This document shows positions 37,954 to 53,857 of a stretch of DNA of 64,000 nt, in pieces. Positions within the stretch are counted from its first letter, which is position 1. Every line of letters begins with the position of its first letter. Location of the stretch: the NCBI GenBank assembly GCA_964607835.1, contig CAZSLL010000002.1, forward strand, positions 20,014 through 84,013, given 5' to 3'. Under the pieces are notes generated by a model. It was not told the origin of the DNA. It made no database searches and was given only the letters and a program-made list of their open reading frames with translations. Source of the DNA: an uncultured archaeon. GTDB taxonomy: Archaea > Aenigmatarchaeota > Aenigmatarchaeia > QMZP01. A program made the position numbers and the translations under genes.

Positions 37954-39903
37954 ATGGGAGAGGATTTGACTGAACTGCAGAAGCAGAGGGAAGACATAAA
38001 GATACTGCTCTCCACCCTTGAGGAGGCTTACAGCGACGCTAGCATAACAGAGGAGCACTACAAGGAAGTGAAGGGCAAGAACGAGAAGAGGCTCAAGGAG
38101 CTGGACGCGAAGATTTCAAAGCTTGAGGCTTCCTCAGCAGGGCCTGCTGAGAAGGAAGGGCCTGCCAAAGAGGGGGCCGAGAAGGCAGAGAAGGAGAAGC
38201 CCGAGGAGCCAAAGCCAGAGAAAGCCAAGCCCAGGAAGAGGGGAAGGCCAAAGGGCTCCAAGTCCAGGCCAAAGCCCGCCCCTGCACATGCATCTCCCTC
38301 CCAGCCCTCTCCTGAATCCGCTCCCGCGCAGCCTTCAACTTCCACAAGCGAGTCCGCCCCCTCCTCAGGTGGGGAAGCCGGGAGCGGGGGCCAGTCCGAC
38401 TACTCGGGCATACCCCAGCCCCTCACTGACATCGCGGGTGAGGGCGGGGGAGCCCTCGGGAGCGGGCCGGACAAGGGCTCAGGTCCGACTGCAGAGCCGG
38501 GCAGCCTGAGGTACACTGCCCAGGAAGTCAAGGACATGCTGGACAAGGTGCTCAAGGAAATCCGGCCTGAGGGTATAGAGGTTGCCCCCAAGGTCGAGAA
38601 GCTTGAGGTCCAGCTCGAAAAGCTCAGGGCCTACATTGAGGCCATGAAGGATGAGAAGTCAGGGTCCAAGGAGGGTATCCAGAGGCTCACCGAGGAGCTG
38701 GGAGAGATGCGCTCCAACGTCTCGGGCATAGACCGCAAGGTGTCAGAGTCCGAGATGAAGGTGCAGGAAATTGACCAGGCCCTGGGAGACCTCAGACCCC
38801 AGAGGTTCACCAAGGCCCTGCAGGACGAGGACAAGACCATCAAGCTCCACGAGGCCAGGCTGGACAAGCTGGACGACCTCAACTCTGTGGTCATGAAGAA
38901 GGTTGGCCAGATAGAGGAGGTGCTCAAGCGGCTGGGAAGCCTGGAGAAGATTGTGAACTTCTCCAAAGAGGCGGCCAAGAGACTCATCGAAATCGAGAAC
39001 AGGGAGAAGAAGATAAATCGGGTGGCTGACAAGATTGACGGCATATTCGTGGACCTCAACAAGAGGCTCCAGGAGTTCGCCCTGTACAAGGCCAAGCAGG
39101 ACACAATGGACGAGCTCTCCCAGGAGATGATGAAGTCCATGGACGAGCTCAACACCAAGATGGAGAAATACGTGGAGAAGTCAGAACTGGAAAGCTTCAA
39201 GGATGCCATCCAGGCTGAGCTGGCCAGCATCAGGACAGCGGGAGGGGCCAGCCCAGAGGTCCAGAAACTGGAGTCCCAGAAGACCGAGATTGAGGGGCTT
39301 ATCGCTATGCTGGACGAGCAGTTCAAGGCTGGTGCCCTGCCAGAGAAGGAGTACAAGAAGACCAAGGCCATCAACCAGCAGAGGCTGGAGAGCATAGACA
39401 AGAAGATACAGGCGGCCCAGTCCGGTCAGGCCGTGTCCGGGGAGACCGAGTCAGGCGCACCTGCACCAACACCGGTTTCAGGGGAAGCCGGCTCCGTGGA
39501 GGCTGCCCCCGAGGAAGGTGGTTCCCCAGAGTCCGCAGCCCCGGAATCCAATCGTCCCGGGGAGAGCGGGGCCTCGGGTGCCAGGCCTGGCGATGGCAAG
39601 GGCCCGGAAGCAAAGCCCACTGAGGAAGGCGGAGCCCCGGAGGGCGGGAGCCAGCCCGCCGGCAGCGAGGCGACCGGGCAGGAACCTGGCCAGGCAATGC
39701 CCAGCCCGCCGGCACCTGAGAAGCAGGGAACGCCCGGGAACGAGGGGGCCTCTGGTACCAAAGACCAGCAAGCCGGAGAGAATGAGCAGACCCTGACCAG
39801 GCAGCAGGAGCTTCTGGCAGAACTCGAGAACTCCTATGCCAGGGGGCTCATAAGCAGGGAGGCCGCGGAAAAGGCAAGGAAACTGGTGAAGGATGACGAG
39901 TAA
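37954..39903 (+). CDS. Cytoplasmic coiled-coil protein with K/E/P-rich and P/G/E/A-rich disordered segments and three SHOCT-like helical motifs (N-terminal, central, C-terminal)
   Basis: A 649-aa ORF with an SD-like site upstream and no TM segment. Coiled-coil heptads run over about residues 190-470. SHOCT-like stretches are 'IKILLSTLEEAYSDASITEEHYKEVKGKNEKRL', 'IEGLIAMLDEQFKAGALPEKEYKKTKAINQQRL' and 'LLAELENSYARGLISREAAEKARKLV'. The stop overlaps the start of the next gene by 11 nt. Confidence 0.78.
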   Translation: MGEDLTELQKQREDIKILLSTLEEAYSDASITEEHYKEVKGKNEKRLKELDAKISKLEASSAGPAEKEGPAKEGAEKAEKEKPEEPKPEKAKPRKRGRPKGSKSRPKPAPAHASPSQPSPESAPAQPSTSTSESAPSSGGEAGSGGQSDYSGIPQPLTDIAGEGGGALGSGPDKGSGPTAEPGSLRYTAQEVKDMLDKVLKEIRPEGIEVAPKVEKLEVQLEKLRAYIEAMKDEKSGSKEGIQRLTEELGEMRSNVSGIDRKVSESEMKVQEIDQALGDLRPQRFTKALQDEDKTIKLHEARLDKLDDLNSVVMKKVGQIEEVLKRLGSLEKIVNFSKEAAKRLIEIENREKKINRVADKIDGIFVDLNKRLQEFALYKAKQDTMDELSQEMMKSMDELNTKMEKYVEKSELESFKDAIQAELASIRTAGGASPEVQKLESQKTEIEGLIAMLDEQFKAGALPEKEYKKTKAINQQRLESIDKKIQAAQSGQAVSGETESGAPAPTPVSGEAGSVEAAPEEGGSPESAAPESNRPGESGASGARPGDGKGPEAKPTEEGGAPEGGSQPAGSEATGQEPGQAMPSPPAPEKQGTPGNEGASGTKDQQAGENEQTLTRQQELLAELENSYARGLISREAAEKARKLVKDDE

Positions 39904-42900
39904 GGGAAGCGGGAATGCAAGGAGAATTGGCCTCCTCTTGGGGGCGCTGGTGCTGGCAGCCCTGCTGCTACACAACCAGAACGCTGTGCAGCAGGAGTAC
40001 GGTGAGGAGTGGTGGAACGGGAGCTGGCACTACAGGGTCAAGATAGATGTCAGCACCGAGAGCATGGAAAGGACTGACTGGCCCGTGGAGTACGAGGCCA
40101 ACTTCACCAGCCTCTTGAATGACCTGGGCGTGAGCGGTGAGTTCGACCCTAACTCCACCAGGGTGCTGGAGGTCAACTCGAGCGGGGGCATCCTCAGGGA
40201 GGTCCCCAGCCAGTTCGACCCTGCACTCGATTACAACTCCACCAGCAACGCAGCCGGTGAGTTGGTTTTCATGCTCAACGGCACCAACGCCCCCGGCACG
40301 ACCAGGTGGTTCTACGTGTACTTCGATACCACGAGCCATGCCAAGTCAGGGGCCACATACGACAGTGAGCTTGAGGCCCAGTGGGACGGAGAGGAGTTCA
40401 ACATCACATTCAACAACCAGGACACAGAACACTACGGATTCTTCGCTTTTGACACCGAGAGGGGAGAGAACACCTCCGGTCTCTACCAGTTCAGGCTCTA
40501 CGACACCTGGAGATTCACCTATCCCAACAGCAACCAGAAGACCAGGGAGTACATACGCACCACTGACGGCTCGAGCGACTTTGGATATGACCTCAGGGAC
40601 AACGCCACGATGGTCGATGGCCCTGCAAGGGTCACGGTGCGCCAGGAGGGCTACGAGGTCTACTTCGGGGAGGCAGACAACCGGACCAACAAGACCTACA
40701 TCAGGAAGACCTATTACTTCTACCCAAACAAGACCTGGTTCGTTGTTGAGCAGGAAATCTTGAACATCAACGGCTCCAGCGTGGACAGGGCCTCCTATGC
40801 AGGGCTCTCGGGATTCGACCTTGAGGGAGCCTACGGAATAGGCTACAAGTGGCTCACCAACTACACCCAGGACCCCGGCTCCTATGTCTCGGGTGGCGGT
40901 GGTACGGGAGTGGAGAGGGTTGGCTACGCCAACCTCTGGGAGAACTCGACATCGAACTTCATGGCAGGCAACTCCACTGACGGGGGGAGCCCTGACTACG
41001 ACCTCATCGGCATCAACCTGAGCATGACCACCATAGAACCCGGCGAGTCCATCAGGAACAGGTTTGTCATGGTTTTCTACCACACCGTGAACAGCCCCAC
41101 ACTGCTCCCTGACACAATGAGAGGCCTGATGAACGGCGTGAGCATAGCAGAGGAGGAGCCTGAGATGTGGGTCATCACCGCCCAGCCCGAGCCTGACCAC
41201 GGAATCTACAACCGCAACGAGTCTGCCATACTGGTGGCAAACGTCACCAGGGATGACTGGTACATCGTGGACCACGCCAACGCCACCCTGGACATGGGCA
41301 CCCCGGGCAGCTCGGCAGACGACATCACCGTGAGCCTCAGGGACGACGGGGCATGCCCTGACCAGGCCGCGGGGGACGGATACCACTCAGCATACTACAA
41401 CTTCAGCGACTCAGAGGCCACTGGGGAATGGAACATGACCGTCAGGCTCTATGACAGGGACGGCGCCTTCCTGAATGAAAGCTATTATACATTCAACATC
41501 ACCGACGTGCTGGAGCTCTCCATAGACATCTGGAACGTAACAGGCATATGGAGGGTGGAGAACGCCACGGTCAACGTGACCAACTACATGCAGGACATCC
41601 AGGTCCCGGGAGCCACCCTGAACTGCACCTCGAACCAGGGCCAGATACCACAGGAGAACATAACTGACAACGGTGACGGCACCTATGTTGTCACCTTCGA
41701 GACGCCCCTGGACTACGGCCTCTACCCCCTCAACTGCTCTGCCCAGAAGGACGGGAGCTGGGGATGGCAGCTCGAGAACTACACGGTCGAGGCCCCTGAG
41801 ACAAACATCTCCCTGACCACAGACCCGTCACTCTACCATGCCTACAACGTCACCTATTTCAGCAACGAGTCATTCGGTCTCAAGGTTACCCTGAGGAATC
41901 TGGAGAACTCCACTGCCTACTGGGCCAACATTACCCTGGATGTGCCCGGCAACCTTACCTCGAACTCCACGCTCGAGACGTGCGGGGAGAACCTCCTCAT
42001 CGGCCTGACCTGCGTCAGGCACTTCAACATCACTGTTCTTAACAACACCATCAACGACACCTACCAGATAGGCGTCACCATAAACTGGACAAACAGGGTG
42101 GGGACCCAGGACTCCAACACCACCGCAGTGGACGTGATTGTCCACGAGACCCCAACTCTGAACGTGCTCGAGGAGAACGTGACAGGAATCCTCCCGCCAG
42201 GGGCAAACAGCCAGAAGATAGAAACCCTGGTTGCCAGGTCAGACGGTAACAACAGGGTATACAACATCAACTTCACCAAGGTGGGCCTGGGAAATTTCAC
42301 CATTGGCTTCTCCCCGCAGGAGACCGGGATGCTCGGGCCGGGCGAGAGCCAGCCTGTCGAGGTAACGGTAACCGTGCCCGAGGGCCAGTTCCCGGGAATC
42401 TACTACGGCTTCATAAACGCCACCTCTGACAACGGGGGCTACGATGTACTGAACACCACCATAATAGTCACAGGGACCAACCTCACCATAAACGCCAGCC
42501 CCGAGACCTACTCTGCCATGTACGTCACGGCATTCACCAACGAGAGCATGGAGATTGCGGTCAATGTCACCAACATCGGCAACACCACGGCCTTCAACAC
42601 CTACGTCAACATGACCTTTCCCGGGAACTGGTACATCAATGAGACCAGCCACTCCTGCGGGAACATGACCAGGGGAAGCACGTGCATGTCCTACTACTAC
42701 ATAAACATAACCGAGCTAACCCACGCCGGGAGCTATGACGTCGAGGCAATGATATTCTGGGAGGACATAGGAATCTCCTGGTTCGACCGCAACGACACCG
42801 TGAATGTGACAGTGGTCTCCAATGCCACCCTCGAGGTGCTGGAGGACCAGTTTGTCAAGACCATGGAGCACGACAACACATCTCTCCTTGGTGAGCTCAC

Positions 42901-45778
42901 GCTTCGCTCCACAGGCAACGATGATTTGTCAGATGTCAACTTCTCCATATCAGGCATATTCAGCGAGTTCGTGATAGGCTTCAACAAGAGCTACCCGTTC
43001 ACCATGGCCCCGGGCGATGTGTTTACTGTCAGGGTGAACGCCACCACCTATCCCGGATTCTCCCCAGGGGATTATGACGGATACATCAACGTGACCTCGT
43101 CCAACGACGGCTACAAACCAGTTGAGCTCAACATAACCGTGCCCCAGAATGGCTCCTGGACCATGAACACCACCTTCTGCGAGCACGCCCAGAGCCCCAA
43201 CTCAGGCACTGTTTGCGATGTGCTCATAAACAACACCGGCAACATAATGCTCAACTTCACCATCGAGCCCCCGGCAGGCGCCAACCACACAACGCCCAGC
43301 AACGCCACCCTCAACATTAGCAAGCAGTCATCTGACGTGCTGTCCATATTCTACGACATGGGCACAGAGGCAGGGGAGGGCTTCTTCTTCACCAACTACA
43401 CCGTTGCCCCCAACCAGAGCGCAGGAGAGCCCGGCAACCTGATCCTTTCCATACTCCTCAACCCCTTCGTCGAGCCCCTGGTGGAGATAGGCCTGACTCC
43501 TCCTGACCAGCAGCAGGCAGGCAGCACCGCCATGGTCATCAATGTCACCAGCCAGTCAGGGGCAGAGTTCGACGATGTGAGGCTCACTGTTCAGAGGCCT
43601 GACGGCACCAACGACACCATGTTGCTGGGTTTCAGCCACCAGGTGTTCTGGTACGGCTGCGACTTCAGCATCAGCGACCCTGGCGACAAGCTCTGCTTCC
43701 AGGTAACGTACCCGGGAACCCTTCCTGGCAACACCAGCGAGCGGGGCAACTACACCGTGTTCGTTTACGCCAACGACACTTACAGGGTCAACACCACCAA
43801 CACCTCCACGCTCAGGATTTTCACTCGCTACATGGCCAACGTCAACATGCCCGATGTTATCCAGGGAAGCTGGGAGAGCATTGAGTACAGGGCCACAGAC
43901 TACCTGGGCGCCGCCCTGCCCTACGCCTCGGTCAACCTCACGGTTAAGGACCCCAACAACCGGATAGTGTACATGCTCTCGGGGAAAGAGTACACAGCCG
44001 ACGAGCAGGGCTGGGTGGGGGACAACATATTCGTCATCCCGGGCCATGCCACAGAGGGCGAGTACAGGGTTCTCACCAACGGCTCCTGGACTGACCCTGA
44101 CCTGGGCATGCTGGTGAGCAATGAGACCGAGGCCATGTTCAATGTGACGGCCAACCAGGAGCTCACCGGAAAGGTGGCCGTGCCCAGCCCCATATACATG
44201 GACAACACCATGACGGTCTCTGTTATAGTGCTGGAGAACCTTCACGAGCCTGTGGACCCTGACGAGATAAACGTGACCATATACTACACAGAGGGCTACG
44301 GACTTCAGGAGTGGAGGACGCTTGACCTCTCTGACTTCAACCGCACCCAGGAGGGATTCTATGAGTACTCAGAGGTCCTGAGCAGCGTGCTCACGGGCAG
44401 CTACCTGGCCCTGCTAAGGGTCTCCCTGGGAGAGAGGGAGACCTATGACATCCAGCCCTTCAGGGTGGCCTCAGGAGGGCCCTACGACGTCATCCTGGAC
44501 CTTGGCGAGAGCGAGGTTCAGCAGGGAAGCACCCTTCCCTTTGACATCACCATATGGAACAAGGGAGAGGTGGACCACAAGGACGTGGTTGCCACCTACT
44601 GGGTGTACGGCAGCGGCCAGAGCTGGGACTCTTCCAGCTTCTCCACCAACATAGTGGGAGGTCAGAACAAGACATTTGGCAGGACTTCTTTCATATACTC
44701 CAATCAGCCCCCTGGCCTCTACACCCTCAACGCAGAGGTGCTCTACGACCCCAACCAGCCTCCTGCCACCGCAAACGCCACTTTCCTGGTCACCAGCACC
44801 GCAGAAGAAGATGAAGGAGGCGGCGGGGGCGGGGCTCCTGCCCCCGGAGGCGCAGCGCCCGCGGCCCCCAGGGGTACCCTCAACATCACAGAGGCCCCTG
44901 ACGTTATAGGGGCAATGGTGGGGCTTCCCAAACTCTTCAGTATAGAGGTGGAGGCAGTGGGCGGGCCGGTGACAGGAGTGGAGCTGGACTTCCAGGGAAT
45001 CCCTGAATCCTGGGTAACCGTGGAGCCCGTCAACCTGAGCAGGATTTCCTCAGGAGGGACAGCAATATTCACGGTCCAGCTCCTGGTTCCCAGGGGGGAG
45101 TCAGGGGACAGGAAGGTCAAGGTGGTGGCCCGCTCCAAGGAGTCCACTGACGACAGCGATTTCACGCTGAGGATATTCACATCCAGGCAGGACCTCATCA
45201 GCTTCGAGCTGGCCAGGCTCAGGGCCAAGCTCGAGGAGCTCAGGGAGCGCTCAAGGAAGGCGGCTGAGGCCGGGTTTGACACAGGCAGGGTGGACGACAC
45301 CCTGGATGATGCCGAGAGGGAGATAGAGCTCGCAGAGCAGTACCTGAGGGAGGAGCTCTACGATGCCTCCCTGGAATCAGTCTATACTGCCTGGAAGCTC
45401 CTGGACAAGGCCGAGGATTTGCTCGACCTGATGCTGGCAGGGTTCTCGCTTCCCTGGTGGCTCATTGTCATCATAATTTTCGCCCTGGTAACGGTGGTGC
45501 TGTTCTTCCTGTACAGGAAGATAAGCAGAAACCTCTCGGTCATGGTCAGGGGAAGGCTCTCCGAAGCCAGGCAGGTGGCAGGTACCATAAAGGGCTCAGG
45601 CGCTGAGGTGGACTCCCTCAGGGACGAGAAGGCCAGGGTCACCAGGATGCTCAAACTCCTGGAAACCCAGCACAAGCAGGGCATAATATCCAAGGAGGCT
45701 TACGACAGCCTGAGAAAGAGGAGCGAGCAGAGGCTGGGGGATATTGACAAGAAGATAAGGCAGTCCCTGTCAGGCTAG
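39893..45778 (+). CDS. 1961-aa surface protein: N-terminal signal/anchor, DUF2341-like domain, sequon-rich CARDB/Ig-like repeats, Gly/Ala/Pro linker, membrane-proximal helical stalk, TM helix, SHOCT-like cytoplasmic tail
   Basis: The N-terminus 'MTSKGSGNARRIGLLLGALVLAALLL' is followed by 'WHYRVKIDVS..TDWPVEYEANF...' (DUF2341-like). The linker is 'EEDEGGGGGGAPAPGGAAPAAP'. The TM segment 'LPWWLIVIIIFALVTVVLFFLY' is at nt 45445-45513. The tail '..RMLKLLETQHKQGIISKEAYDSLRKRSEQRL' is SHOCT-like. Confidence 0.85.
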   Translation: MTSKGSGNARRIGLLLGALVLAALLLHNQNAVQQEYGEEWWNGSWHYRVKIDVSTESMERTDWPVEYEANFTSLLNDLGVSGEFDPNSTRVLEVNSSGGILREVPSQFDPALDYNSTSNAAGELVFMLNGTNAPGTTRWFYVYFDTTSHAKSGATYDSELEAQWDGEEFNITFNNQDTEHYGFFAFDTERGENTSGLYQFRLYDTWRFTYPNSNQKTREYIRTTDGSSDFGYDLRDNATMVDGPARVTVRQEGYEVYFGEADNRTNKTYIRKTYYFYPNKTWFVVEQEILNINGSSVDRASYAGLSGFDLEGAYGIGYKWLTNYTQDPGSYVSGGGGTGVERVGYANLWENSTSNFMAGNSTDGGSPDYDLIGINLSMTTIEPGESIRNRFVMVFYHTVNSPTLLPDTMRGLMNGVSIAEEEPEMWVITAQPEPDHGIYNRNESAILVANVTRDDWYIVDHANATLDMGTPGSSADDITVSLRDDGACPDQAAGDGYHSAYYNFSDSEATGEWNMTVRLYDRDGAFLNESYYTFNITDVLELSIDIWNVTGIWRVENATVNVTNYMQDIQVPGATLNCTSNQGQIPQENITDNGDGTYVVTFETPLDYGLYPLNCSAQKDGSWGWQLENYTVEAPETNISLTTDPSLYHAYNVTYFSNESFGLKVTLRNLENSTAYWANITLDVPGNLTSNSTLETCGENLLIGLTCVRHFNITVLNNTINDTYQIGVTINWTNRVGTQDSNTTAVDVIVHETPTLNVLEENVTGILPPGANSQKIETLVARSDGNNRVYNINFTKVGLGNFTIGFSPQETGMLGPGESQPVEVTVTVPEGQFPGIYYGFINATSDNGGYDVLNTTIIVTGTNLTINASPETYSAMYVTAFTNESMEIAVNVTNIGNTTAFNTYVNMTFPGNWYINETSHSCGNMTRGSTCMSYYYINITELTHAGSYDVEAMIFWEDIGISWFDRNDTVNVTVVSNATLEVLEDQFVKTMEHDNTSLLGELTLRSTGNDDLSDVNFSISGIFSEFVIGFNKSYPFTMAPGDVFTVRVNATTYPGFSPGDYDGYINVTSSNDGYKPVELNITVPQNGSWTMNTTFCEHAQSPNSGTVCDVLINNTGNIMLNFTIEPPAGANHTTPSNATLNISKQSSDVLSIFYDMGTEAGEGFFFTNYTVAPNQSAGEPGNLILSILLNPFVEPLVEIGLTPPDQQQAGSTAMVINVTSQSGAEFDDVRLTVQRPDGTNDTMLLGFSHQVFWYGCDFSISDPGDKLCFQVTYPGTLPGNTSERGNYTVFVYANDTYRVNTTNTSTLRIFTRYMANVNMPDVIQGSWESIEYRATDYLGAALPYASVNLTVKDPNNRIVYMLSGKEYTADEQGWVGDNIFVIPGHATEGEYRVLTNGSWTDPDLGMLVSNETEAMFNVTANQELTGKVAVPSPIYMDNTMTVSVIVLENLHEPVDPDEINVTIYYTEGYGLQEWRTLDLSDFNRTQEGFYEYSEVLSSVLTGSYLALLRVSLGERETYDIQPFRVASGGPYDVILDLGESEVQQGSTLPFDITIWNKGEVDHKDVVATYWVYGSGQSWDSSSFSTNIVGGQNKTFGRTSFIYSNQPPGLYTLNAEVLYDPNQPPATANATFLVTSTAEEDEGGGGGGAPAPGGAAPAAPRGTLNITEAPDVIGAMVGLPKLFSIEVEAVGGPVTGVELDFQGIPESWVTVEPVNLSRISSGGTAIFTVQLLVPRGESGDRKVKVVARSKESTDDSDFTLRIFTSRQDLISFELARLRAKLEELRERSRKAAEAGFDTGRVDDTLDDAEREIELAEQYLREELYDASLESVYTAWKLLDKAEDLLDLMLAGFSLPWWLIVIIIFALVTVVLFFLYRKISRNLSVMVRGRLSEARQVAGTIKGSGAEVDSLRDEKARVTRMLKLLETQHKQGIISKEAYDSLRKRSEQRLGDIDKKIRQSLSG

Positions 45779-46602
45779 GATGGCGCGCCGGAAGCACCGA
45801 AGACCTCCTGCTCAGGGAATACCTCGATGCCCTTTCCTGTGATTATCTGCATGGCCACGACCTTCTTCCTGTGCTCAGCCCCCCTCATCTTGAGGACCTC
45901 GACTGCGGATTCCCTGACGTCCCCGCGCCGTATGTTGTAGAAGACTATGACTCCGTCAGCCAGGAACTCCTCCACCCCGGTCCTGCTGAATGCCGAGGGG
46001 CTCTGGTCGGTTTCTGTGATGAGGAAGGATGTGGCCCCGCTCTTCTCGAAGAACCGGAAAAGCTGCTCTATGTAGCTCCTGTAGTTCTGCTCCCTGCTCA
46101 CGAAGTATGACGATATCGCGCTGAGCGAGTCAAGGACAATTATATCGGGCCTGAAGCCCTTGGGAATGATTAGGGGCTCCACGTTTATCATGAGCTCGCC
46201 CCTCTGCTTGGCCATCATGGCGTCCATGGACTTGCTGATGTCGTACGACCTGAACCTCTTGAGCACGAGCTTTCCTGAGGCCTCCATCTCTCTTGGGTCC
46301 CAGCCAAAGTCCTCCATGTGCTCCCTGAGCCTGTCCTCGTGCTCCTCGAATGACATGTATATGCATTTCTTTCCTGCCTGGACCGCATTGGTGATGAGCT
46401 GGAGGCAGCCTATGGTCTTTCCTGAGCCCGCTCCACCAGAGACCAGGACGTTGGAGCCCACTGGAATCCCTTTGGTGAACAGCCTATCCAGGCCCTCGAT
46501 GCCTGTCCTGATGAAACCCCTCCTCAGGGGCTTCTCCTTCTTCAGGGCCTTTCCAGAGCTGCTTTTTTGCTTCCCCTTTGCCTGGCTCTTTTCCTTTGCC
46601 AC
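45775..46602 (-). CDS. KaiC-like / RecA-superfamily single-domain ATPase with Lys-rich N-terminal tail
   Basis: 'GIEGLDRLFTKGIPVGSNVLVSGGAGSGKT' is the classic KaiC/RadA P-loop context. The stop overlaps the convergent upstream gene by 4 nt, and the gene lies 36 nt downstream of the 46639..50742 gene on the same strand. Confidence 0.85.
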   Translation of the reverse strand: MAKEKSQAKGKQKSSSGKALKKEKPLRRGFIRTGIEGLDRLFTKGIPVGSNVLVSGGAGSGKTIGCLQLITNAVQAGKKCIYMSFEEHEDRLREHMEDFGWDPREMEASGKLVLKRFRSYDISKSMDAMMAKQRGELMINVEPLIIPKGFRPDIIVLDSLSAISSYFVSREQNYRSYIEQLFRFFEKSGATSFLITETDQSPSAFSRTGVEEFLADGVIVFYNIRRGDVRESAVEVLKMRGAEHRKKVVAMQIITGKGIEVFPEQEVFGASGAPS

Positions 46603-46638
46603 GAAATCACACTACATTAGTATTGTCCTGACGGGCTT

Positions 46639-49600
46639 TTATATCCTGACGCCCTGCCTCATCATGTATATCGCCTTCTCCACCCGTACAAGCCTGGACC
46701 TGTGCCTGTCCATGACTGCCTCATAGTCAGCCCTTCCCAGGGAGCCAATGCTGAAATACCTCTTCTGGGCATGGGACATCAACTCCTTTATGGAGCCCCT
46801 CTCTGACTCCAGCTCCCTGAGCTTCTTCCTGAGCCTGGCCCCACTCCTGAGCCTCCTGAGCCCGAGCCATGCAGGCGGAAGGGCCAGCGCCGCAGCCAGG
46901 AGGTATGCCCAGTTTTCCGTTGCTGCCCTGGAAGCCTGCTCCAGGGGGGAGGAGCTAAGGCCCCTCTCCATGGCAGCCTCTGCCCTGGCCTCCTCCACGA
47001 GCTCCAGTGCCTCACCCAGCCTCTGTTCGGCTTCTATGTAGCTCTCTGAACCGAAAAGGGAGATTCCTTCCTCAAGGGCCTCCCTGGCCTCCAGCACATC
47101 AAGCCCTTCCTCCCCGGCCCCGAGTATTTCCTGCTCTGCATGGTCAATAAGCATGTCCGCTTCCCTGGCTGCATTGAATATCACGCCCACCTGCCTGGCC
47201 AGGGCCAGGGCTGCCGATTCCTCTCCCCTGGCCTGCATCAGCCTGGCTTCGTTGAGCACGTCCGAGACGTGAGAGGTCTTGAAGCCGCTTCCTGCCATGT
47301 CCGCTATGACCAGCTCTGCCTCCCGGATCTCCTGCTCCAGCGTGGCCTGGACATCCTGGGCCGCTACCAGACCTGACATCAGGACAATGCCCGCCAGGGC
47401 GACTGCCGCGATTCCCAGGCCTAATGAACCCTTCCTCTTCCTGAGCATGTCCATACTCTTGTCGATTTCCGCGGTCTCCTGCCTCATCCTCTTCATTATG
47501 GCCTCGTAAAGCCCTCTTCCGACACCGTCCCCGCTGAAGTACCTCCTCTGGGTGTCCTTCATGAACCTGGATATCTCTTCCCTTTCTCTCCTGAGGCTCT
47601 TCAGGGTCTTCCTGACAGAGCCCCCTCCTGATATTAGCCTTGCCTTGGCCCTCTTTATGTCAGCCAGCCTTGCCTCGTAGTCCTGCACTGCCCTGGAATA
47701 GGTGTCCTTCCCCACCCGGGGCCTGGCGCTGAAGTAGGCCTTCTGCAGGTTGACTATCATTCGCTCCAGTCCCCTCTCCTCCAGTCTGAGGCTGCTTATC
47801 CTTGCCCTGAGAAGCCTGGTTGCCGTATACCTCCTTCCCAGAAGCAGGGCCGCTGCCAGCCCTGCGGCCCCCATGCCAAGGAACACCCAGTTCTCCCTGA
47901 TACCCGAGAGCACCCACAATAACCCGTAGGTCTCCAGTGAGAAGGAGGCCCTGGCACTCAGTGCACGCTCCTCTGCCCTCTGGTAGTCCCCCCTCTGGAA
48001 TGCCATCTCAGCAAGCCTTAGAAGACTCTCTGACTCCGGTGCCTCTATGCCGTTCTCCTTTGCGCTGGATATGTCCCCCTCCAGTCCAGCCATCATGCCC
48101 TCGACCCTGAAGGCCAGCTCTGCCTTCTCGATTACCTGCTCTGCAATCTCCCTGGCTGCCTCGTAGTCCCACTCGCCTGCCAGGGCATCCATCCTCTCTA
48201 TGCTGGCGTTCATGTTCTCTGCAGAGTACCCTGCCTCCTGCATTTCCGCGGAAAGCTCCCTGGCCCTGTCCAGCAGGTCTGACTCCTCTCCTGTGCTAAC
48301 CACTGACACAGTCATGGAGTGAGAACCCGAAAGGGTCCGGTTGAGGGTCCTCCCCCCGCCCGAGAGCTCCATGGAGAGGTTGTACTGGCCCTGGGAAATG
48401 TACCCAGGCGCCTCAAGGGTAACTATGAACCTCACGGTGTCGCCCTGGTTCACCCCGTTCCTCTCCTCAGGGGACACTGTGACATATGTCAGGGGGTAGC
48501 CCGAGACCTCCAGGGACAGGCTGTCTGATGTAAAGCTGAGGCCGTACTCTATGTTCACAGAGAAGCTATGGTTGCTCCCCCTCTCAAGCTCCAGTCTTTG
48601 CGGCGCGCTCAGTGAAAGGGCGTTCTCGGTTACCGGTGCCCCTCCCCCGCTTATGACCGTGGTACCGGCGGAGCTTCCTCCTCCTCCGTCCTGGCAGTCG
48701 CTGTCAGTGGAGGAGCTGCAGCCCAGGCCGCACACCCCGTCAGTGCTGCTGCATGAGACCCCGATGACAGCAGAGTCAGATGCGTTGGAGCCCTCTGAGC
48801 AGCTTGAGTTCACCATTAGAGCAACTGCCCCTGCGCCGGCGCTGGCCGGGTCTATGCTAAGGGACAGTGTGCTGGTGTAACTGGCCCCCTGGGAGAGGCT
48901 GCCCACGAAATGGCTGGCATTGCCTGATGTGTTGGAGAACCCTGAAGGAAGGCTGAAATTCAGCCGCACTCCGGTAGCGGTCTCGTTCCCGATGTTCTTG
49001 ACCCTCGCTGAGACGTTCACCCCTGTATCGCTCTGGCTTACAGATGTGGGGGCCCGGGTTATCTCGAGCTCAAGGTAGGGCCCGCCCACGTATGATATGA
49101 GGGTGGCGTTGGCCACCCTCTCGGCAGGCTCTGCGTTTTCGCTTGCCGCACCTATGGTGAGGTTGACCGCATACTCGTAGGCCTGGGAGGTGGCGGTGGC
49201 GTTGACCATTATGCTGAGGTTGCTGCCTGCAGCCACGTCAAAGCTGTCAGGGTTGGATAGGTTGTACTCGGTGTTGGTGTAGGTTGAGGTTATCCCGAAG
49301 CTGAGGGGATAGTCCCCTGTGTTGGTTATGGTGAGCACCCCAAGGGCGCCCTCCTCGTTGATGTATACGTAGGTTGTCCCGAGCCCCTGCGGATTCACGG
49401 ACCACGTGTAGTCGTAATCAACTGTGAGGCTGTACTCGCTGGAGTTGCCAGAATGCCCCATGGTGTCATTGGCCCATATCCTGTAGTACCACATACCGTC
49501 AGGGGCGGGCACGCCGAAGGAGGCGTTGTACTGGCCAGAGAGGTTGCCCATGGTCACATTCGACCACGTGGAGACCGACTCCCTCCTGTACTGGAGAATG

Positions 49601-50742
49601 GCGGTGTGCACCCCGCTGGGGTCTGTGATGTTGGCCGTCACGTTGACGTCTATCCCCGGGTCGAGCAGGTCATTACCCTGGGGGGAGCGCTCCACTCCTG
49701 CTATTCCGGGCGGGGTGCCCGAATCGATGAAGAAGGTGCGGTTGGTGTTGTTCCAGGTGCTGTTGCTCTGGTTGTCAACTGCATAGCAGGTCCATAAATA
49801 CTCCCCGTCTGCCAGGCCTGTTATGTTCCATGTCCTGCTGAGATATCCGGGCGCGCCCAGGCCGGACTCATAATGCCCCTGAATCTCGTCCCTGGCCACC
49901 GCGCTTGTGAATACGATGAGCTCATCAAAGGCGGCGTCCAGCTGGTCGTTTGCCTGGTAGTCGCTCCCTATGTAGGCCGTGGATGGGGTCCATGATGGGT
50001 AGTAGGCCCCTCCCATGTAAGGGTTCGCTGTTGTCGCGTTGCTGCCGTCCACCATGAGGTCCATGTTGCTGTTGTCATAGTCCCAAACCGCTGCCACGTG
50101 ATGCCATTCATCCGATGACCATGATATGTCCTGGTAGGTGAAGCTCCTTGAGCCGTAATCGTCATACCATTCGAACACCAGCTGTCCTGTTGAGTTTATG
50201 AAAAGCCTTACCTGGTTTGACTTGTCCCCGTGGCTCTCTCCCATCATGAAAAGCCATGCTGTGCCTGATATGGAAGCCCTGGGCCTCACCCAGAACTCGA
50301 CTGTGCCTACATACGAGCTCATCCTTCCCGTTGTGCTGAAGCTCAGGGAGTCCCCTGAGCCCACCCTGGCGGCCTCCCCTGTCTTGCCGGGCTCCAGGCT
50401 GGCGCCGCTCTGGGTCAGTGTTCCTGCTGAGCCACCGCCTGAGTTGTAGCAGCTGTAGTTCTGCATGTGGCATAGCATGGTGTGGCCGAGCCCTGGCTGT
50501 AGCTCTCCGTAGAGCACTCTCTTCAGCCTTTCCCAGCTGTCCCCTGTATCAGCATAGAGGGTCAGTTCTGAAACCGCCTCATCGTCAGTGGCGTTGCATG
50601 TAATCCCGGTGTAGTTCACCGGGGACACATATGAGTCCTGAGGAGAGACCATGAGGGCCTCTGGCGGAGCGGCAGAGCAGGTTCCTGCAAATATGACAAG
50701 CCATACGATAAGTGCCAAAGCCGTTAGTGAAAGCCGAGCCAT
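46639..50742 (-). CDS. 1367-aa surface protein: signal peptide, LamG-like domain, Ig/CARDB-like sequon-rich repeats, Cys-motif + Gly/Ser linker, membrane-proximal helical region, three TM helices separated by SHOCT-like '[KR]YFS...Y...RL' cytoplasmic repeats
   Basis: The N-terminus 'MARLSLTALALIVWLVIFAGTCSAAPP' is a signal peptide. The LamG signature is 'TVEFWVRP...SDEWHHVAAVWDYDNSNMDLMVDG...FDELIVFTSAVARDEI'. The Cys motif and linker are 'DGVCGLGCSSSTDSDCQDGGGGSSAG'. The three TM segments are 'LLWVLSGIRENWVFLGMGAAGLAAALLLG', 'LGLGIAAVALAGIVLMSGLVAA' and 'WAYLLAAALALPPAWLGL'. The repeats are 'QKAYFSARPRVGKDTYSRAVQDYEARL', 'TQRRYFSGDGVGRGLYEAIMKRMRQ' and 'AQKRYFSIGSLGRADYEAVMDRHRSRL'. Confidence 0.85.
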   Translation of the reverse strand: MARLSLTALALIVWLVIFAGTCSAAPPEALMVSPQDSYVSPVNYTGITCNATDDEAVSELTLYADTGDSWERLKRVLYGELQPGLGHTMLCHMQNYSCYNSGGGSAGTLTQSGASLEPGKTGEAARVGSGDSLSFSTTGRMSSYVGTVEFWVRPRASISGTAWLFMMGESHGDKSNQVRLFINSTGQLVFEWYDDYGSRSFTYQDISWSSDEWHHVAAVWDYDNSNMDLMVDGSNATTANPYMGGAYYPSWTPSTAYIGSDYQANDQLDAAFDELIVFTSAVARDEIQGHYESGLGAPGYLSRTWNITGLADGEYLWTCYAVDNQSNSTWNNTNRTFFIDSGTPPGIAGVERSPQGNDLLDPGIDVNVTANITDPSGVHTAILQYRRESVSTWSNVTMGNLSGQYNASFGVPAPDGMWYYRIWANDTMGHSGNSSEYSLTVDYDYTWSVNPQGLGTTYVYINEEGALGVLTITNTGDYPLSFGITSTYTNTEYNLSNPDSFDVAAGSNLSIMVNATATSQAYEYAVNLTIGAASENAEPAERVANATLISYVGGPYLELEITRAPTSVSQSDTGVNVSARVKNIGNETATGVRLNFSLPSGFSNTSGNASHFVGSLSQGASYTSTLSLSIDPASAGAGAVALMVNSSCSEGSNASDSAVIGVSCSSTDGVCGLGCSSSTDSDCQDGGGGSSAGTTVISGGGAPVTENALSLSAPQRLELERGSNHSFSVNIEYGLSFTSDSLSLEVSGYPLTYVTVSPEERNGVNQGDTVRFIVTLEAPGYISQGQYNLSMELSGGGRTLNRTLSGSHSMTVSVVSTGEESDLLDRARELSAEMQEAGYSAENMNASIERMDALAGEWDYEAAREIAEQVIEKAELAFRVEGMMAGLEGDISSAKENGIEAPESESLLRLAEMAFQRGDYQRAEERALSARASFSLETYGLLWVLSGIRENWVFLGMGAAGLAAALLLGRRYTATRLLRARISSLRLEERGLERMIVNLQKAYFSARPRVGKDTYSRAVQDYEARLADIKRAKARLISGGGSVRKTLKSLRREREEISRFMKDTQRRYFSGDGVGRGLYEAIMKRMRQETAEIDKSMDMLRKRKGSLGLGIAAVALAGIVLMSGLVAAQDVQATLEQEIREAELVIADMAGSGFKTSHVSDVLNEARLMQARGEESAALALARQVGVIFNAAREADMLIDHAEQEILGAGEEGLDVLEAREALEEGISLFGSESYIEAEQRLGEALELVEEARAEAAMERGLSSSPLEQASRAATENWAYLLAAALALPPAWLGLRRLRSGARLRKKLRELESERGSIKELMSHAQKRYFSIGSLGRADYEAVMDRHRSRLVRVEKAIYMMRQGVRI

Positions 50743-50825: not shown

Positions 50826-52070
50826 ATGAAAGAAAAGGGAATCATGAGGAGAATCGATTTTCTGGTCATCCCTTCCATAATCATCCTTTTCCTGGCTGCC
50901 CTGGCCATAGACTCCTATCAGCCAGGAGCCCTCAGCCTTGCGGGAAAACCGCATGATGGGAGGCTGCTCATGGCCATGGGAAGCTTCGAGGGCAATGTGC
51001 CTGGGGAGGCCCTGATATGGGTGCTGGGGCCGGATGGCAGCCACGAGGAGCTCTCCCTGGAGGGCTCCAATGTTTGCCACAGGGTGCTGTCAGCTGACCT
51101 GGACCATGACGGTGTGCCTGAGCTATATGCCGCCACTGGCCAGAACGCATCAGTGTTCTCTCTCACCCCATCAGGTAATGGATGGGATACCCAGTTGATA
51201 TGGGAGCCGGACTGCAGCAGGGTGAGGGACCTGGAGGCAGGGGACGTGGACGGTGACGGTGCACAGGAGCTGGTGGCAGTGACCCACTTGCCAGGAAAGA
51301 TTGCCGTCATCAGGCCGGATGGTGCCCAGTGGCAGGTCACAGAGCTCCTCTCGCTCAATGGCACCTACATCCATGAGGTCGAGCTGTATGATGCCGACCA
51401 GGATGGGTCAGACGAGATATTCTCAACTCCATCAGAACCCAACCAGGCCAAGGGCCTGAGCCAGCCCGGAAGGATTCTCATGCACAGCTGGAACGGCACG
51501 GGCTTCTCTGTGAGGGAGCTGGCCTCCTTCAGCACCACCCACGCAAAGGAGATTTCTATGGGAGACCCTGACAACGATGGCCTGCCTGAGCTCCTGGCCG
51601 CTGTCCAAGGAAATGCCACCCGCCATCAGGTCCCTGGGGAGGGTGTGGTGAAGCTTGTCATAGAAACTCCCCTTCGGATAATGCTCTGGGACATGGCTGA
51701 CCTGTCCGCAGAGGGGAGTGTCATTACAGAACTCCCTGGCATAGGGGCAAGGGCGCTTGCAGTTGGTGATGCTAACAATGACGGCCTGAACGAGCTCCTC
51801 TTGGGCACCGAGACCGCAGGGCTCCACCTTCTCATGCACAGGAATGGCTCCTGGAAAACGGAGTCCATCGACTCCTCCTTAAGGGGCAACATAGGAGGCG
51901 CCATCATCGCAGACCTTAATGGCGACGGCCTCAATGAGGTGGTGGCCAGTTCTGATTCCCTGGGTCTGGTCAGGTCATACTCCCGTGAATCAGGCGTTTG
52001 GCAAGGCGAGACCGTGCTTGAAACAGGGGGGCACTGGGTATGGGCCATGTCATGGGGGGATGCCCTGTGA
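50826..52070 (+). CDS. Membrane-anchored FG-GAP repeat (integrin-alpha-like beta-propeller) protein
   Basis: An N-terminal TM segment 'IDFLVIPSIIILFLAALAI' is followed by at least six 'D.D.DG..EL' Ca-binding-type FG-GAP repeats: DLDHDGVPELY, DVDGDGAQELV, DADQDGSDEIF, DPDNDGLPELL, DANNDGLNELL and DLNGDGLNEVV. Confidence 0.8.
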   Translation: MKEKGIMRRIDFLVIPSIIILFLAALAIDSYQPGALSLAGKPHDGRLLMAMGSFEGNVPGEALIWVLGPDGSHEELSLEGSNVCHRVLSADLDHDGVPELYAATGQNASVFSLTPSGNGWDTQLIWEPDCSRVRDLEAGDVDGDGAQELVAVTHLPGKIAVIRPDGAQWQVTELLSLNGTYIHEVELYDADQDGSDEIFSTPSEPNQAKGLSQPGRILMHSWNGTGFSVRELASFSTTHAKEISMGDPDNDGLPELLAAVQGNATRHQVPGEGVVKLVIETPLRIMLWDMADLSAEGSVITELPGIGARALAVGDANNDGLNELLLGTETAGLHLLMHRNGSWKTESIDSSLRGNIGGAIIADLNGDGLNEVVASSDSLGLVRSYSRESGVWQGETVLETGGHWVWAMSWGDAL

Positions 52071-53449
52071 GAAGGCTCGCCCTGCTCCTTCCCGCCATCG
52101 TTGCTGCCATGGCAATCCCCCTGGCCTACACCGGCCAGCTCGCCCCTGCAGAGGAGTATTCGTGCGAGGGGTGCAGCCTCCTCCTGGTCACAGCCGACAC
52201 CCTGAGGGCAGACCATGTCTCCTCCTACGGATACTTCCAGCAAACCACCCCCAACATTGATGCTTTGGCCTCCAGGGGCATCCTTTTCGAGCAGGCTTAC
52301 ACCCAGGTTCCCTTCACCCCGCCCTCGCACTGGACCATTATGACAGGGCTCTACCCCTTCCATCACGGAATGTACCTTCCCACCAACGAGAGCAGGCTCG
52401 AGACCCTGGCCACAAGGCTGTCCAGGTCAGGCTATGACACAGCGGCCTTCACTGCCAGCTACATGGTGGGCAGGCTGGAAAGGGGGTTCGGTGTCTTCGA
52501 GGTCCCTGCCTTCAGGACAGAGAAGGAGTACAGGCCCGCCACGAACGTCACCGAATCAGCGCTCAGCTGGCTCATGCAGAGAGACGGGGAGGGACCATTC
52601 TTCCTCTGGGTGCACTACTTCGATGCCCACAGCCCCTACCAGCCCCCTGATGGGCATGACATATACGACTATTCCATGGAGCCCAGGTACGCGGATGAGC
52701 GGTACTCCAGAGCGGGCATAGACAACTTCAGGCCCATCAGGGATGACATCGCAAGGTATGACGGGGAGGTCCGCTACATGGACAACCAGCTCGGCAGGCT
52801 CCTTGGCGAGCTGGAGTCCCTCGGCCTCTCTGAGAACACAATGGTGGCGGTAGTGTCTGACCACGGGGAATGTTTTGGCGAGCACCTTTTCTCTGACTTC
52901 GGGTATGAGATGACCGGGCCCTGCCTGTTCCATGACAAGACCCTCTACCAGGAGGAGGTGCATGTCCCCATGGTCTTGTACAACCCCAGGGCCAGGAGGT
53001 CTTCAGGCACCAGGATTGGCGAGATAGTGGAGACCGCTGACCTCGCTCCCACGCTGCTCGAGACCCTGTGCCTCATTCCCCCTGAGGGACTGGACGGCAG
53101 GAGCATGGTCCCTCTCATAGAGGGCAACTCCTCGGGCTTCGGAAGGGCGTTCATGCAGATAAGGCCGGGAGAGACCGGCATATTCGCCTACGGCCTCCTT
53201 TCGCCTGAATGGAAGTTCGTGAGGGCAGGCCTCTCACTGGACCGCCAGGGTCATGTCCAGGAGCACGAGATGCTGTTTGACAGGAAGAACGACCCGCGTG
53301 AGATGGTCAATGCCCTGGGTCAGAGGCCGGGCCCTGCACAGGAGATGGAGGAAGAGCTCGCGGAAGTCATGGGCAGCGGGCTCTCTGAAAGGGTGTACAT
53401 AGACAGCAGGACCGAGGAGATGCTCAGGATGCTGGGGTACCTTGCCTGA
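52040..53449 (+). CDS. Sulfatase-family (alkaline-phosphatase superfamily) exported enzyme with Thr/His substitutions at the formylglycine-motif positions
   Basis: An N-terminal signal-like segment is followed by 'LLLVTADTLRADHVSSYGY' (sulfatase metal-binding N-terminus) and 'VPFTPPSHWTIMTGLYP'. The latter sits where the sulfatase signature C/S-x-P-S-R...LTGR lies, but reads T-P-P-S-H. Downstream sulfatase-like blocks include 'PFFLWVHYFDAHSPY' and 'VVSDHGE'. The start overlaps the preceding gene by 31 nt; an in-frame ATG 12 nt downstream is an alternative. Confidence 0.75.
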   Translation: MGHVMGGCPVRRLALLLPAIVAAMAIPLAYTGQLAPAEEYSCEGCSLLLVTADTLRADHVSSYGYFQQTTPNIDALASRGILFEQAYTQVPFTPPSHWTIMTGLYPFHHGMYLPTNESRLETLATRLSRSGYDTAAFTASYMVGRLERGFGVFEVPAFRTEKEYRPATNVTESALSWLMQRDGEGPFFLWVHYFDAHSPYQPPDGHDIYDYSMEPRYADERYSRAGIDNFRPIRDDIARYDGEVRYMDNQLGRLLGELESLGLSENTMVAVVSDHGECFGEHLFSDFGYEMTGPCLFHDKTLYQEEVHVPMVLYNPRARRSSGTRIGEIVETADLAPTLLETLCLIPPEGLDGRSMVPLIEGNSSGFGRAFMQIRPGETGIFAYGLLSPEWKFVRAGLSLDRQGHVQEHEMLFDRKNDPREMVNALGQRPGPAQEMEEELAEVMGSGLSERVYIDSRTEEMLRMLGYLA

Positions 53450-53521: not shown

Positions 53522-53857
53522 ATGGCTGAACTCAGGAACGTGGACATACAGGGAAGCGACATCATCGTCAACATGCGAATCACCAGGGACGAGTACAATC
53601 TCCTGGGTCAGAGGACAGGTGACATTGCGCTCATTCCCGCTGGCGACAGGGAGCTCGACCACACGCTGACCTCGGGCAAGCTCGGCAACAGCAACCGGAT
53701 AATGCTGCCCAAGAAGCTCCTTAACATGGAGGGCATAGTGCATCTGGAGAAAAAGCTTGCCTCCAGGTTTTTCAGGGTGAACGGAAGCGTGTACCTGCTC
53801 ATAAGGCTCAGGGAATCCGATGTGGGCATTCCCATGTTCATGGAGGAAGGCAAATGA
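53522..53857 (+). CDS. Small hypothetical protein (111 aa), possibly AbrB/SpoVT-like swapped-hairpin DNA-binding fold
   Basis: 'NRIMLPKKLLNMEGI' resembles the AbrB/SpoVT 'grvtIPkeiReklgi.eGd' motif. A 4-nt ATGA overlap with the downstream KaiC-like gene indicates an operon. The fold assignment is weak. Confidence 0.55.
   Translation: MAELRNVDIQGSDIIVNMRITRDEYNLLGQRTGDIALIPAGDRELDHTLTSGKLGNSNRIMLPKKLLNMEGIVHLEKKLASRFFRVNGSVYLLIRLRESDVGIPMFMEEGK

Follow-up and report, generated by a model that had tools for sequence, protein, structure and literature searches.

SHOCT domains (Pfam PF09851) consist of two alpha-helices joined by a short loop; they extend over about 30 residues with a strongly conserved loop glycine and glutamate, show no insertions or deletions, and lie within 50 residues of the C-terminus in 89% of members (PMC3581485). 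The only published test of their oligomerisation, by size exclusion, did not support it (PMC3581485), and comparative genomics has led to the proposal that SHOCT-like bihelical domains serve either in membrane-proximal anchoring, attaching disparate domains to the inner leaflet, or in assembly (PMC11237479). The archaeal protein CdvA combines an N-terminal PRC domain with a three-helix coiled coil, whose helix corners form the interface for head-to-tail polymerisation; filament formation requires the hydrophobic residues A90, L94, I100, I149, M153 and I156, and the filaments do not bind membranes in vitro (10.1101/2025.09.15.676241). Here, we describe a helical hairpin of about 54 residues, termed the unit, that occurs seven times in three proteins encoded side by side in DNA of an uncultured archaeon of the Aenigmatarchaeota (contig CAZSLL010000002.1, positions 20,014 to 84,013; this whole stretch of 64,000 nucleotides is referred to as the window). 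The unit is the mark of a conserved, operon-like locus in Aenigmatarchaeota-like (DPANN) archaea, and it extends the SHOCT-like/CdvA-like bihelical class to a form of about 54 residues that lies outside the curated families.

The three proteins are a soluble coiled-coil protein of 649 amino acids (aa) and two large surface proteins of 1961 and 1367 aa. Their genes and the segments discussed below are as follows, with the evidence for each in brackets.

37954..39903, + strand: gene for the 649-aa soluble coiled-coil protein (open reading frame (ORF) and translation, 28 homologues, AlphaFold2 (AF2) secondary structure)
37963..38124, + strand: unit copy 1, residues 4-57 of the 649-aa protein (hidden Markov model (HMM) cross-detection, AF2)
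38140-38514 and 39433-39783, + strand: disordered linkers of the 649-aa protein, residues 63-187 and 494-610 (AF2 predicted local distance difference test score (pLDDT) <50)
38509..39243, + strand: helical core of the 649-aa protein, residues 186-430 (core HMM)
39256..39417, + strand: unit copy 2, residues 435-488 of the 649-aa protein (HMM, gap-free alignment, AF2)
39802..39891, + strand: short, SHOCT-sized unit copy 3, residues 617-646 at the C-terminus of the 649-aa protein (short-copy HMM, hhalign, AF2)
39893..45778, + strand: gene for the 1961-aa surface protein (ORF, translation, Pfam, hydropathy)
45455..45514, + strand: transmembrane (TM) helix of the 1961-aa protein, residues 1855-1874 (hydropathy 3.04, flanking charges)
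45605..45766, + strand: tail unit of the 1961-aa protein, residues 1905-1958 (independent E-value (iE) 2e-8 with an HMM built without the tail; iE 1e-5 to 3e-16 for the orthologous tails of 11 other loci)
46639..50742, - strand: gene for the 1367-aa surface protein (ORF, translation, Pfam, hydropathy)
47635..47799, - strand: variant unit 1, residues 982-1036 of the 1367-aa protein (hhalign, variant HMM, AF2)
47443..47604, - strand: variant unit 2, residues 1047-1100 of the 1367-aa protein (hhalign, variant HMM, AF2)
46660..46821, - strand: variant unit 3, residues 1308-1361 of the 1367-aa protein (HMM, hhalign, AF2)

The initial annotation of this DNA had reported a short SHOCT-like pattern, together with a variant of it, at three sites in the 649-aa protein, one in the 1961-aa protein and three in the 1367-aa protein, and all seven sites are present. 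The spelling it gave, 'L..L.......G.IS.E.Y...K', has zero exact matches because the spacing from L..L to G is off by one, so that the sites were right and the literal pattern was not. A loosened core pattern matches exactly four times in the 71,042 residues of the six-frame ORF set, each time at one of the named sites of the 649-aa and 1961-aa proteins, against 0.007-0.01 matches expected from composition-preserving shuffles. The conserved unit is about 54 residues long, not about 28: copies 1 and 2 and the 1961-aa tail, whose unit ends three residues before the C-terminus, align over this length without gaps. The 1367-aa variants, with a spacing of YFS-x(4,5)-G-x3-Y, had been placed between TM helices; this is correct for two copies, which lie in the loop between TM1 and TM2, but not for the third, which follows TM3.

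Profile searches connect the copies. HMMs of single copies, built from 21 orthologues and run against the 586 window ORFs, retrieve the other full copy at iE 1e-10 to 1e-11 and the 1961-aa tail at iE 2e-5 to 2e-8, and reach the 1367-aa protein weakly (iE 0.03-0.3), while an HMM of the variants finds the canonical copies in reverse (iE 0.001-0.015). Alignment of profiles by hhalign gives P = 4e-15 for copy 1 against copy 2, P = 3e-12 for copy 2 against the 1961-aa tail, P = 4e-9 for the short C-terminal copy against the same tail, and P = 5e-7 for nine 1367-type variants against the canonical unit (57 columns, with a two-residue insertion in the turn); sixteen control coiled-coil windows of 58 residues, taken from the core of the same protein family, give P >= 0.012. 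The proteins are rich in lysine, glutamate and leucine, and numerous weak coiled-coil matches turn up in Pfam and NCBIfam scans, which would fit a chance product of charged, heptad-patterned amphipathic helices with no discrete module. That explanation is hardly credible given 54 columns aligned without a gap, hhalign values down to 4e-15 where control windows do not fall below 0.012, four pattern matches where the shuffles predict about a hundredth of one, and the retention of each copy in orthologues down to 23% identity; the control windows and shuffles refute a chance or generic coiled-coil origin. The observation is confirmed and is no coiled-coil artefact, and on these sequence comparisons the seven copies are one homologous module, beyond generic coiled-coil likeness.

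The unit is conserved together with its setting. The 649-aa protein has 28 homologues in a word-indexed search, several of them labelled Aenigmarchaeota/Aenigmatarchaeota, and is found in six GTDB species representatives, all Aenigmatarchaeota or 'uncultured archaeon'; all three copies are kept across the alignment of this family. Searched against 1.84 billion representatives, the unit profile matches 325 proteins at E <= 1e-3 and 128 at E <= 1e-10. The top 150 of the 325 include 147 new sequences, of which 124 also have the helical core and are arranged as unit, core, unit and, in many cases, a short unit; the unit is therefore essentially a signature of the coiled-coil family and its neighbours. 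The word-indexed homologue search made with the unit alignment returned only three short fragments, and a metagenome scan for further loci found four, two of which were new. Neither the unit nor the core of the coiled-coil protein is covered by a curated model in Pfam or NCBIfam.

At all 12 distinct loci that have a complete downstream gene, the next large gene after that of the coiled-coil protein encodes a protein of 1951-2012 aa ending in a unit (iE 1e-5 to 7e-18). This count includes locus L011, where the coiled-coil protein is only 23% identical, and it upholds the co-occurrence of the motif in the coiled-coil protein and the tail-bearing surface protein that the initial annotation had noticed in a single genome. 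The ~1950-aa gene usually abuts or overlaps the coiled-coil gene, by 11 nucleotides in the window (39893-39903) and by 0-4 nucleotides elsewhere (junctions at 7699 in L016, 7072-7075 in L019 and 1787 in L021), an arrangement that points to co-transcription and perhaps to translational coupling. In each locus with sequence upstream, the coiled-coil gene is preceded by one for a giant protein ending in a DUF87 ATPase. Four loci (the window, L005, L009 and L018) share a gene for a KaiC-like protein and one for a LamG protein that has three TM helices and three variant units; the KaiC-like gene of the window sits between the genes of the 1961-aa and 1367-aa proteins, and it keeps this position between unit-bearing surface genes in L001/L005 and L018. 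A homologous hairpin is found in three to four proteins of a conserved locus, with strict co-occurrence and a predicted cytoplasmic placement. Literature searches found no description of the locus or the unit; the 'novel secretion system' of arCOG01314 (PMC5898192) comprises other genes.

Some members of these families depart from the common layout. In the L011 orthologue P0028, the most divergent one (23% identity), the short SHOCT-sized copy is N-terminal, not C-terminal. The same locus (10001-12211, 12216-12536, 12537-12833) has two small ORFs, of 106 and 98 aa, before the 1951-aa gene, and these hold weak unit-like sequences such as KAFSEGALSESRYKGKEKSLQKERKKLEKNI. The search of representatives also returned P0159 (324 aa), a miniature of the 1961-aa design with one Ig-like domain, a helical stalk, a TM helix and a tail unit.

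The structure of the unit was predicted by AF2, run on the 649-aa protein with a 21-sequence alignment and on the C-terminus of the 1367-aa protein as a single sequence. All three copies of the 649-aa protein are predicted to form a helix, a five-residue turn and a second helix at pLDDT 88-93: copy 1 with helices at residues 5-27 and 33-61 around a turn at 28-32 (pLDDT ~90), copy 2 with helices at 434-458 and 464-489 (pLDDT ~91), and the short copy 3 with helices at 611-629 and 635-646 (pLDDT ~88). The single-sequence model of the 1367-aa C-terminus provides secondary structure (predicted template modelling score (pTM) 0.35), and its three copies are likewise predicted to be helix-turn-helix, the third at pLDDT ~90. 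In this model, TM1 passes unbroken into helix 1 of variant unit 1, helix 2 of variant unit 2 continues into TM2, and TM3 continues into helix 1 of variant unit 3, so that the two loop hairpins would lie next to each other just below the membrane.

Across 47 full copies, column statistics reveal a single a/d stripe of hydrophobic residues on each helix: positions 2, 5, 12, 16, 19 and 23 in helix 1, with a further hydrophobic residue at 15, and positions 33, 44, 47 and 51 in helix 2; turn position 28 is also hydrophobic. Polar residues are conserved at positions expected in the core (K/R9, K/R37 and N40). Position 40 is Asn in 42 of the 47 copies, all but one of these from the coiled-coil protein, and Ser or Thr in five tails. 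At loop position 26, 22 copies have G, 20 have A and 4 have K; E stands at position 30 in 31 copies and at position 31 in 23, and position 32 has H in 20 copies and E in 18. Turn insertions of one or two residues are found in the nine variant copies of the 1367-aa family, and the other copies are gap-free. A single a/d stripe combined with conserved buried polar positions would suit a register-specific bundle of four or more helices better than an isolated hairpin. Charge differs between the proteins: in the soluble protein, the full units have mean net charges of -2.0 and -0.9, acidic or neutral, and their helix 1 averages -3.2 to -3.5, the units of the five tails analysed carry +4 to +6, and the 1367-aa variants 0 to +6.

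The proteins that present these units differ in architecture. The 649-aa protein, in which no TM segment was found by hydropathy, is laid out as unit, disordered linker, helical core of about 245 aa (residues 189-429 in the AF2 model), unit, disordered linker and short unit. Its linkers are rich in P, E, K, S, A and G and vary in length and sequence across orthologues, and on the AF2 model they probably act as tethers between the units and the core. Searched against Pfam and NCBIfam, it has sub-threshold coiled-coil matches only (in NCBIfam, generic SMC/Rad50 noise). A signal peptide opens the 1961-aa protein; its acidic ectodomain bears 92 N-X-S/T sequons and an NPCBM_assoc match (54.5 bits in Pfam), and a helical stalk, one TM helix and a basic tail of 87 residues follow. 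The tail has a net charge of +10 and one sequon, with five K/R residues standing directly after the TM helix. The 1367-aa protein has a signal peptide, an acidic LamG and Ig-like ectodomain with 33 sequons (Laminin_G_3, 68 bits in Pfam) and three TM helices, of which TM3 is weaker and contains proline. Its segments after TM1 and TM3 are basic (+20 and +5) and free of sequons, while that between TM2 and TM3 carries -18. This charge pattern and the positive-inside rule place the unit-bearing segments in the cytoplasm, in agreement with the initial annotation: they are basic and nearly sequon-free, against acidic and sequon-rich ectodomains, and the predicted topology follows from that.

As the initial annotation linked the motif to the SHOCT domain, the copies were compared with PF09851 in several ways. 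Neither the three whole proteins nor the seven excised copies have a match at E <= 10; the gathering cut-off is 27 bits, and the SHOCT consensus, run with the same tool as a positive control, scores 49.7 bits. When 76 unit instances from orthologues were scanned against Pfam, 12 gave sub-threshold SHOCT matches (best E = 8e-4), which lie in register (profile positions 3-26 on the unit centre, 13-19.5 bits), and a consensus of the tails scores 17.6 bits. The initial annotation had held that its proposal would fall if PF09851 found nothing, not even below threshold; nothing is indeed found for the copies of the window, but the orthologue matches mean that this is not the overall outcome. Against an hhalign profile of 117 PF09851-annotated segments, which is of low diversity (effective number of sequences 3.5), the same 23-27 columns are aligned, and the full copies plus tails reach a probability of 44% (P 2.4e-4), the tails 28% (P 6e-4), the short copy 15% (P 1.8e-3) and the 1367-aa variants 0.2% (P 0.28), with control windows at P >= 0.024.

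The likeness to SHOCT lies in the core L..LE..[YF]..G.I[ST].E.[YF]...K, which aligns in register, in the two amphipathic helices with a short loop (predicted by AF2 for the six copies of the 649-aa and 1367-aa proteins), in a placement that is often C-terminal and after TM segments, and in the proposed role in sub-membrane assembly. Unlike SHOCT, the unit has some 12 extra conserved residues on each side, so that six of the seven copies measure about 54 residues and only the C-terminal copy of the 649-aa protein is SHOCT-sized; the variants carry turn insertions where SHOCT has no indels; the loop glycine is often Ala; and N-terminal and internal copies exist, three of the seven lying within 50 residues of the C-terminus (the 1961-aa tail, copy 3 of the 649-aa protein and variant unit 3 of the 1367-aa protein). 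In addition, the unit is nearly confined to one archaeal protein family and its neighbours. If the copies were ordinary, diverged members of PF09851, one could point to the 12 of 76 in-register matches, with a best of 19.5 bits, to the score of the tail consensus, and to hhalign P values of 2.4e-4 to 1.8e-3 that set the canonical copies apart from controls. Membership is nevertheless quite improbable: none of the window's seven copies matches PF09851, every score stays below the 27 bits that the SHOCT consensus exceeds so clearly, hhalign does not pass 44% for canonical copies and gives P 0.28 for the 1367-aa variants, the unit is twice the SHOCT length, the loop glycine is present in only 22 of 47 full copies, and the variant loops have insertions. 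As the description of SHOCT fits only in part, the unit is SHOCT-like at the level of the motif and not a demonstrable member. Nor is the premise of the initial annotation, that SHOCT is an oligomerisation motif, an established one (PMC3581485).

Two other families come as close as SHOCT. The most frequent sub-threshold Pfam match among the 76 instances is GvpG (PF05120), with 21 matches at profile positions ~23-66 (best 17.6 against 30.6 bits, best E 6e-4), and the SHOCT consensus itself cross-matches GvpG at 28 bits; the setting is unlike that of GvpG, in that there are no gas-vesicle genes in the locus. The coiled coil of CdvA (PF18822) follows with 20 matches, the best at 20.6 bits (E = 5e-4, copy 2) against a cut-off of 30 bits. 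In a sequence search of the PDB with the unit profile, CdvA (9s9g_A) is the second-best match, at residues 90-111 and, more weakly, at 150-166 (SLKMSYISSEIPENAYK), with an E of 0.29 that is not significant. The six CdvA residues needed for filaments lie at or beside the two helix corners aligned by the unit profile, and hhalign against CdvA gives P = 0.004 and 0.007 at the same two corners (with a CdvA sequence that, as a control, scores 146 bits on PF18822). CdvA is thus an archaeal protein in which two helix corners of the bundle carry the motif in register (structures 9s9g and 9s9i). The unit differs in forming separate hairpins on disordered tethers or TM helices, not one three-helix bundle; a Pfam scan of the three unit-bearing proteins found no PRC barrel, and there is no ESCRT-III-like gene among the annotated neighbours, although no search aimed at ESCRT-III was made. 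The resemblances to CdvA, GvpG and SHOCT are at motif level, and they are leads on mechanism, not on membership. The PDB search returned nothing below E = 0.048, the value of its best match, residues 849-874 of a botulinum-like toxin (8c8g_A, YFLDSLEEAYNNGSISAESYYKYQTE), which is in register with the unit core and probably due to chance.

A structural comparison of the full-length 649-aa AF2 model with the PDB, made with Foldseek, ranks the hairpins of the ESCRT-I headpiece at the top, with root-mean-square deviations of 0.6-1.3 A over 56-59 residues, followed by CdvA. In the ESCRT-I headpiece (Vps23/Vps28/Vps37; PDB 2f66, 2caz, 6vme), hairpins of some 55-65 residues from different subunits pack side by side into a hetero-oligomer. 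The analogy is functional only, with no sequence relationship: any helical hairpin would match, nothing in the Foldseek search is significant (E >= 0.45) and the hairpin matches are generic.

What the unit does can be approached from these comparisons. We tentatively favour, at somewhat less than an even chance, a reading of sequence and models in which hairpins from different chains dock and the coiled-coil protein cross-links the tails of the surface proteins below the membrane. Hairpins of different chains would pack side by side into bundles of four or more helices. The ~1950-aa glycosylated surface protein would contribute one unit on its cytoplasmic tail and the accessory three-TM LamG protein three units continuous with its TM helices, while the soluble coiled-coil protein, whose three copies (two full, one short) sit on long disordered tethers, would bring the cytoplasmic tails together or cross-link them. 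In favour of this reading are the homology of all seven copies, the confidently predicted hairpins, the pairing of the genes at 12 of 12 loci and the placement of two units next to each other in the 1367-aa protein. The acidic units of the soluble protein and the basic units of the tethered ones may amount to charge complementarity. CdvA, with its helix corners as polymerisation interface, and the ESCRT-I headpiece, with hairpins from three different subunits, provide precedents for assembly of this kind, although neither likeness is significant. Several points weigh against such docking. The positive-inside rule alone can explain the difference in charge, and the published experiment on a SHOCT domain detected no oligomerisation (PMC3581485). 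The full-length AF2 model of the 649-aa protein has a pTM of 0.21 with no confident packing among its three units, and is therefore uninformative on how they pack together. HMM searches find no copy of the unit in the HerA-like or KaiC-like ATPases of the locus. Finally, P0146, a secreted and probably bacterial protein of 283 aa, has a signal peptide followed by four tandem unit-like repeats (LE.LEEAYEEGKIDEE.YEA.K); these repeats lie outside the cell, which means that docking in the cytoplasm is no intrinsic property of the motif.

The units might instead act only within each protein or in homo-oligomers, dimerising or stiffening the tails and separately assembling the coiled-coil protein into filaments or lattices in the manner of CdvA, without contact between that protein and the tails; the shared module would then reflect duplication and shuffling inside one locus. 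CdvA does polymerise through hydrophobic residues at helix corners, exactly where the unit profile aligns, a single chain of the 1367-aa protein holds its two loop units next to each other, and the contrast at position 40 between Asn in the full copies and Ser or Thr in the five tails might define two classes of pairing. Yet homo-oligomerisation does not require the adjacency seen at 12 of 12 loci or the overlap of the genes, the likeness to CdvA is not significant (E 0.29; at most 20.6 against 30 bits), and the PRC barrel is missing, so that we regard this possibility as unlikely though well worth considering. A further proposal, in which the units are peripheral anchors at the inner leaflet that localise the coiled-coil protein and hold the tails flat, with no contact between hairpins, would agree with the anchoring role suggested for SHOCT-like domains (PMC11237479) and with the juxtamembrane position and basic charge of the units in the membrane proteins. 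It is improbable in view of the soluble protein, the one in need of an anchor, whose full units are acidic or neutral, with helix 1 at -3.2 to -3.5; the sole hydrophobic stripe of each helix is consumed in the predicted hairpin core, CdvA forms filaments that do not bind membranes in vitro (10.1101/2025.09.15.676241), and unit-like repeats occur in the secreted P0146. Cross-linking of the tails by the coiled-coil protein remains our preferred, if tentative, reading. Under it, the module offers a testable handle on a conserved locus, indicating which short peptides should bind and how a scaffold is wired to giant surface proteins, and the strict genomic pairing could permit functional testing of SHOCT-like and CdvA-like hairpins. 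If the hairpins were inert structural elements, the finding would reduce to the annotation of a lineage-specific domain.

Two kinds of ATPase accompany the unit-bearing proteins in the window.

36571..37758, + strand: C-terminal TM helix and HerA/DUF87 P-loop ATPase domain of the giant upstream protein (translation, DUF87 and HerA_C)
45775..46602, - strand: gene for the KaiC-like ATPase, 275 aa (PF06745, 182.5 bits)

The giant upstream ORF is open from base 1 of the window to 37758 on the + strand; its product, of 12,574 aa or more, contains DUF2341 and LamG repeats along with many sequons and closes with a single TM helix and a cytoplasmic HerA/DUF87 P-loop ATPase. Both DUF87 (PF01935, 39.7 bits with a cut-off of 23.2) and HerA_C (PF05872, 28.2 bits with a cut-off of 22) are detected, together with a Walker A motif GSTGAGKS at 36814-36837 and a Walker-B-like LFIVYDEVH in the translation. 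Against NCBIfam, the ATPase reaches no equivalog, the best being CedD at 27 bits. Such a fusion of a giant surface protein to a cytoplasmic HerA-class ATPase is unusual, and elsewhere it ranges in size from 1531 aa (CP070801.1) to more than 11,000 aa. The last 85 aa of the giant protein (37504-37758), which are helical and follow the ATPase, are highly conserved between loci (E 1e-33 to 1e-42). They could be a candidate docking site for the coiled-coil protein. They also bear a weak resemblance, which is not significant (E 0.22-1.2), to the juxtamembrane helices of the ecto-stalk in the 1961-aa family (G[FVI]DT..[VI]...L..A). The KaiC-like protein scores far above the PF06745 cut-off of 26.6 bits and also gives sub-threshold matches to ArlH/FlaH (49 bits). 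A second KaiC-like gene lies at 53854-54522 on the + strand (PF06745, 130 bits).

The closest parallel to this combination is the archaellum scaffold formed by ArlX/FlaX with the KaiC-like ArlH/FlaH and with ArlI/FlaI, where a sub-membrane coiled-coil scaffold, a KaiC-like ATPase and a hexameric-type ATPase are likewise encoded beside surface-structure genes (PMC5019145). The present locus differs in that the second ATPase belongs to the HerA/FtsK class rather than to the ArlI class of secretion ATPases and forms part of a giant surface protein, in that pilin or archaellin genes are absent, and in that the coiled-coil protein lacks a TM anchor; no homology of the latter to ArlX was detected. 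The HerA-like and KaiC-like ATPases may be linked to the assembly of units. The initial annotation suggested that they might belong with the unit-bearing proteins to one complex, which is not supported: neither ATPase carries a unit, and synteny is the sole ground for including them.

Archaea of the DPANN group rely on contact with host cells, and their surface apparatus is largely unknown. Against this background, a bolder and doubtful proposal is that the units are the docking code of an archaeal envelope machine not described before. The three hairpins of the scaffold would bundle the tails of several giant, glycosylated, adhesin-like proteins, one of them fused through a single TM helix to a pumping ATPase of the HerA/FtsK class; with the KaiC-like ATPase, the machine would connect what happens at the surface of DPANN symbionts, for instance attachment to a host or the passage of DNA or other cargo, with ATP-driven activity within the cell. 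The motif would matter more were it a true assembly code for a system of giant surface protein, HerA-like ATPase, coiled-coil protein and KaiC-like ATPase.

Further genes lie downstream in the window, at 50826-53449 and 57895-63933, and encode an FG-GAP/VCBS repeat protein, a sulfatase and a response regulator (94.6 bits); inspection by eye alone adds a PAS-rich protein and two large sensor histidine kinases of the membrane in the same region. In L019, a response regulator and a HAMP histidine kinase directly follow the ~1950-aa gene. The region downstream of the coiled-coil gene in CP070801.1, a near-complete Aenigmatarchaeota chromosome (L004/L008), holds assembly gaps (runs of N). At 4066-5172 of L004/L008, ftsZ is found immediately 5' of the gene for the HerA-fused surface protein, and an S-layer gene lies nearby.

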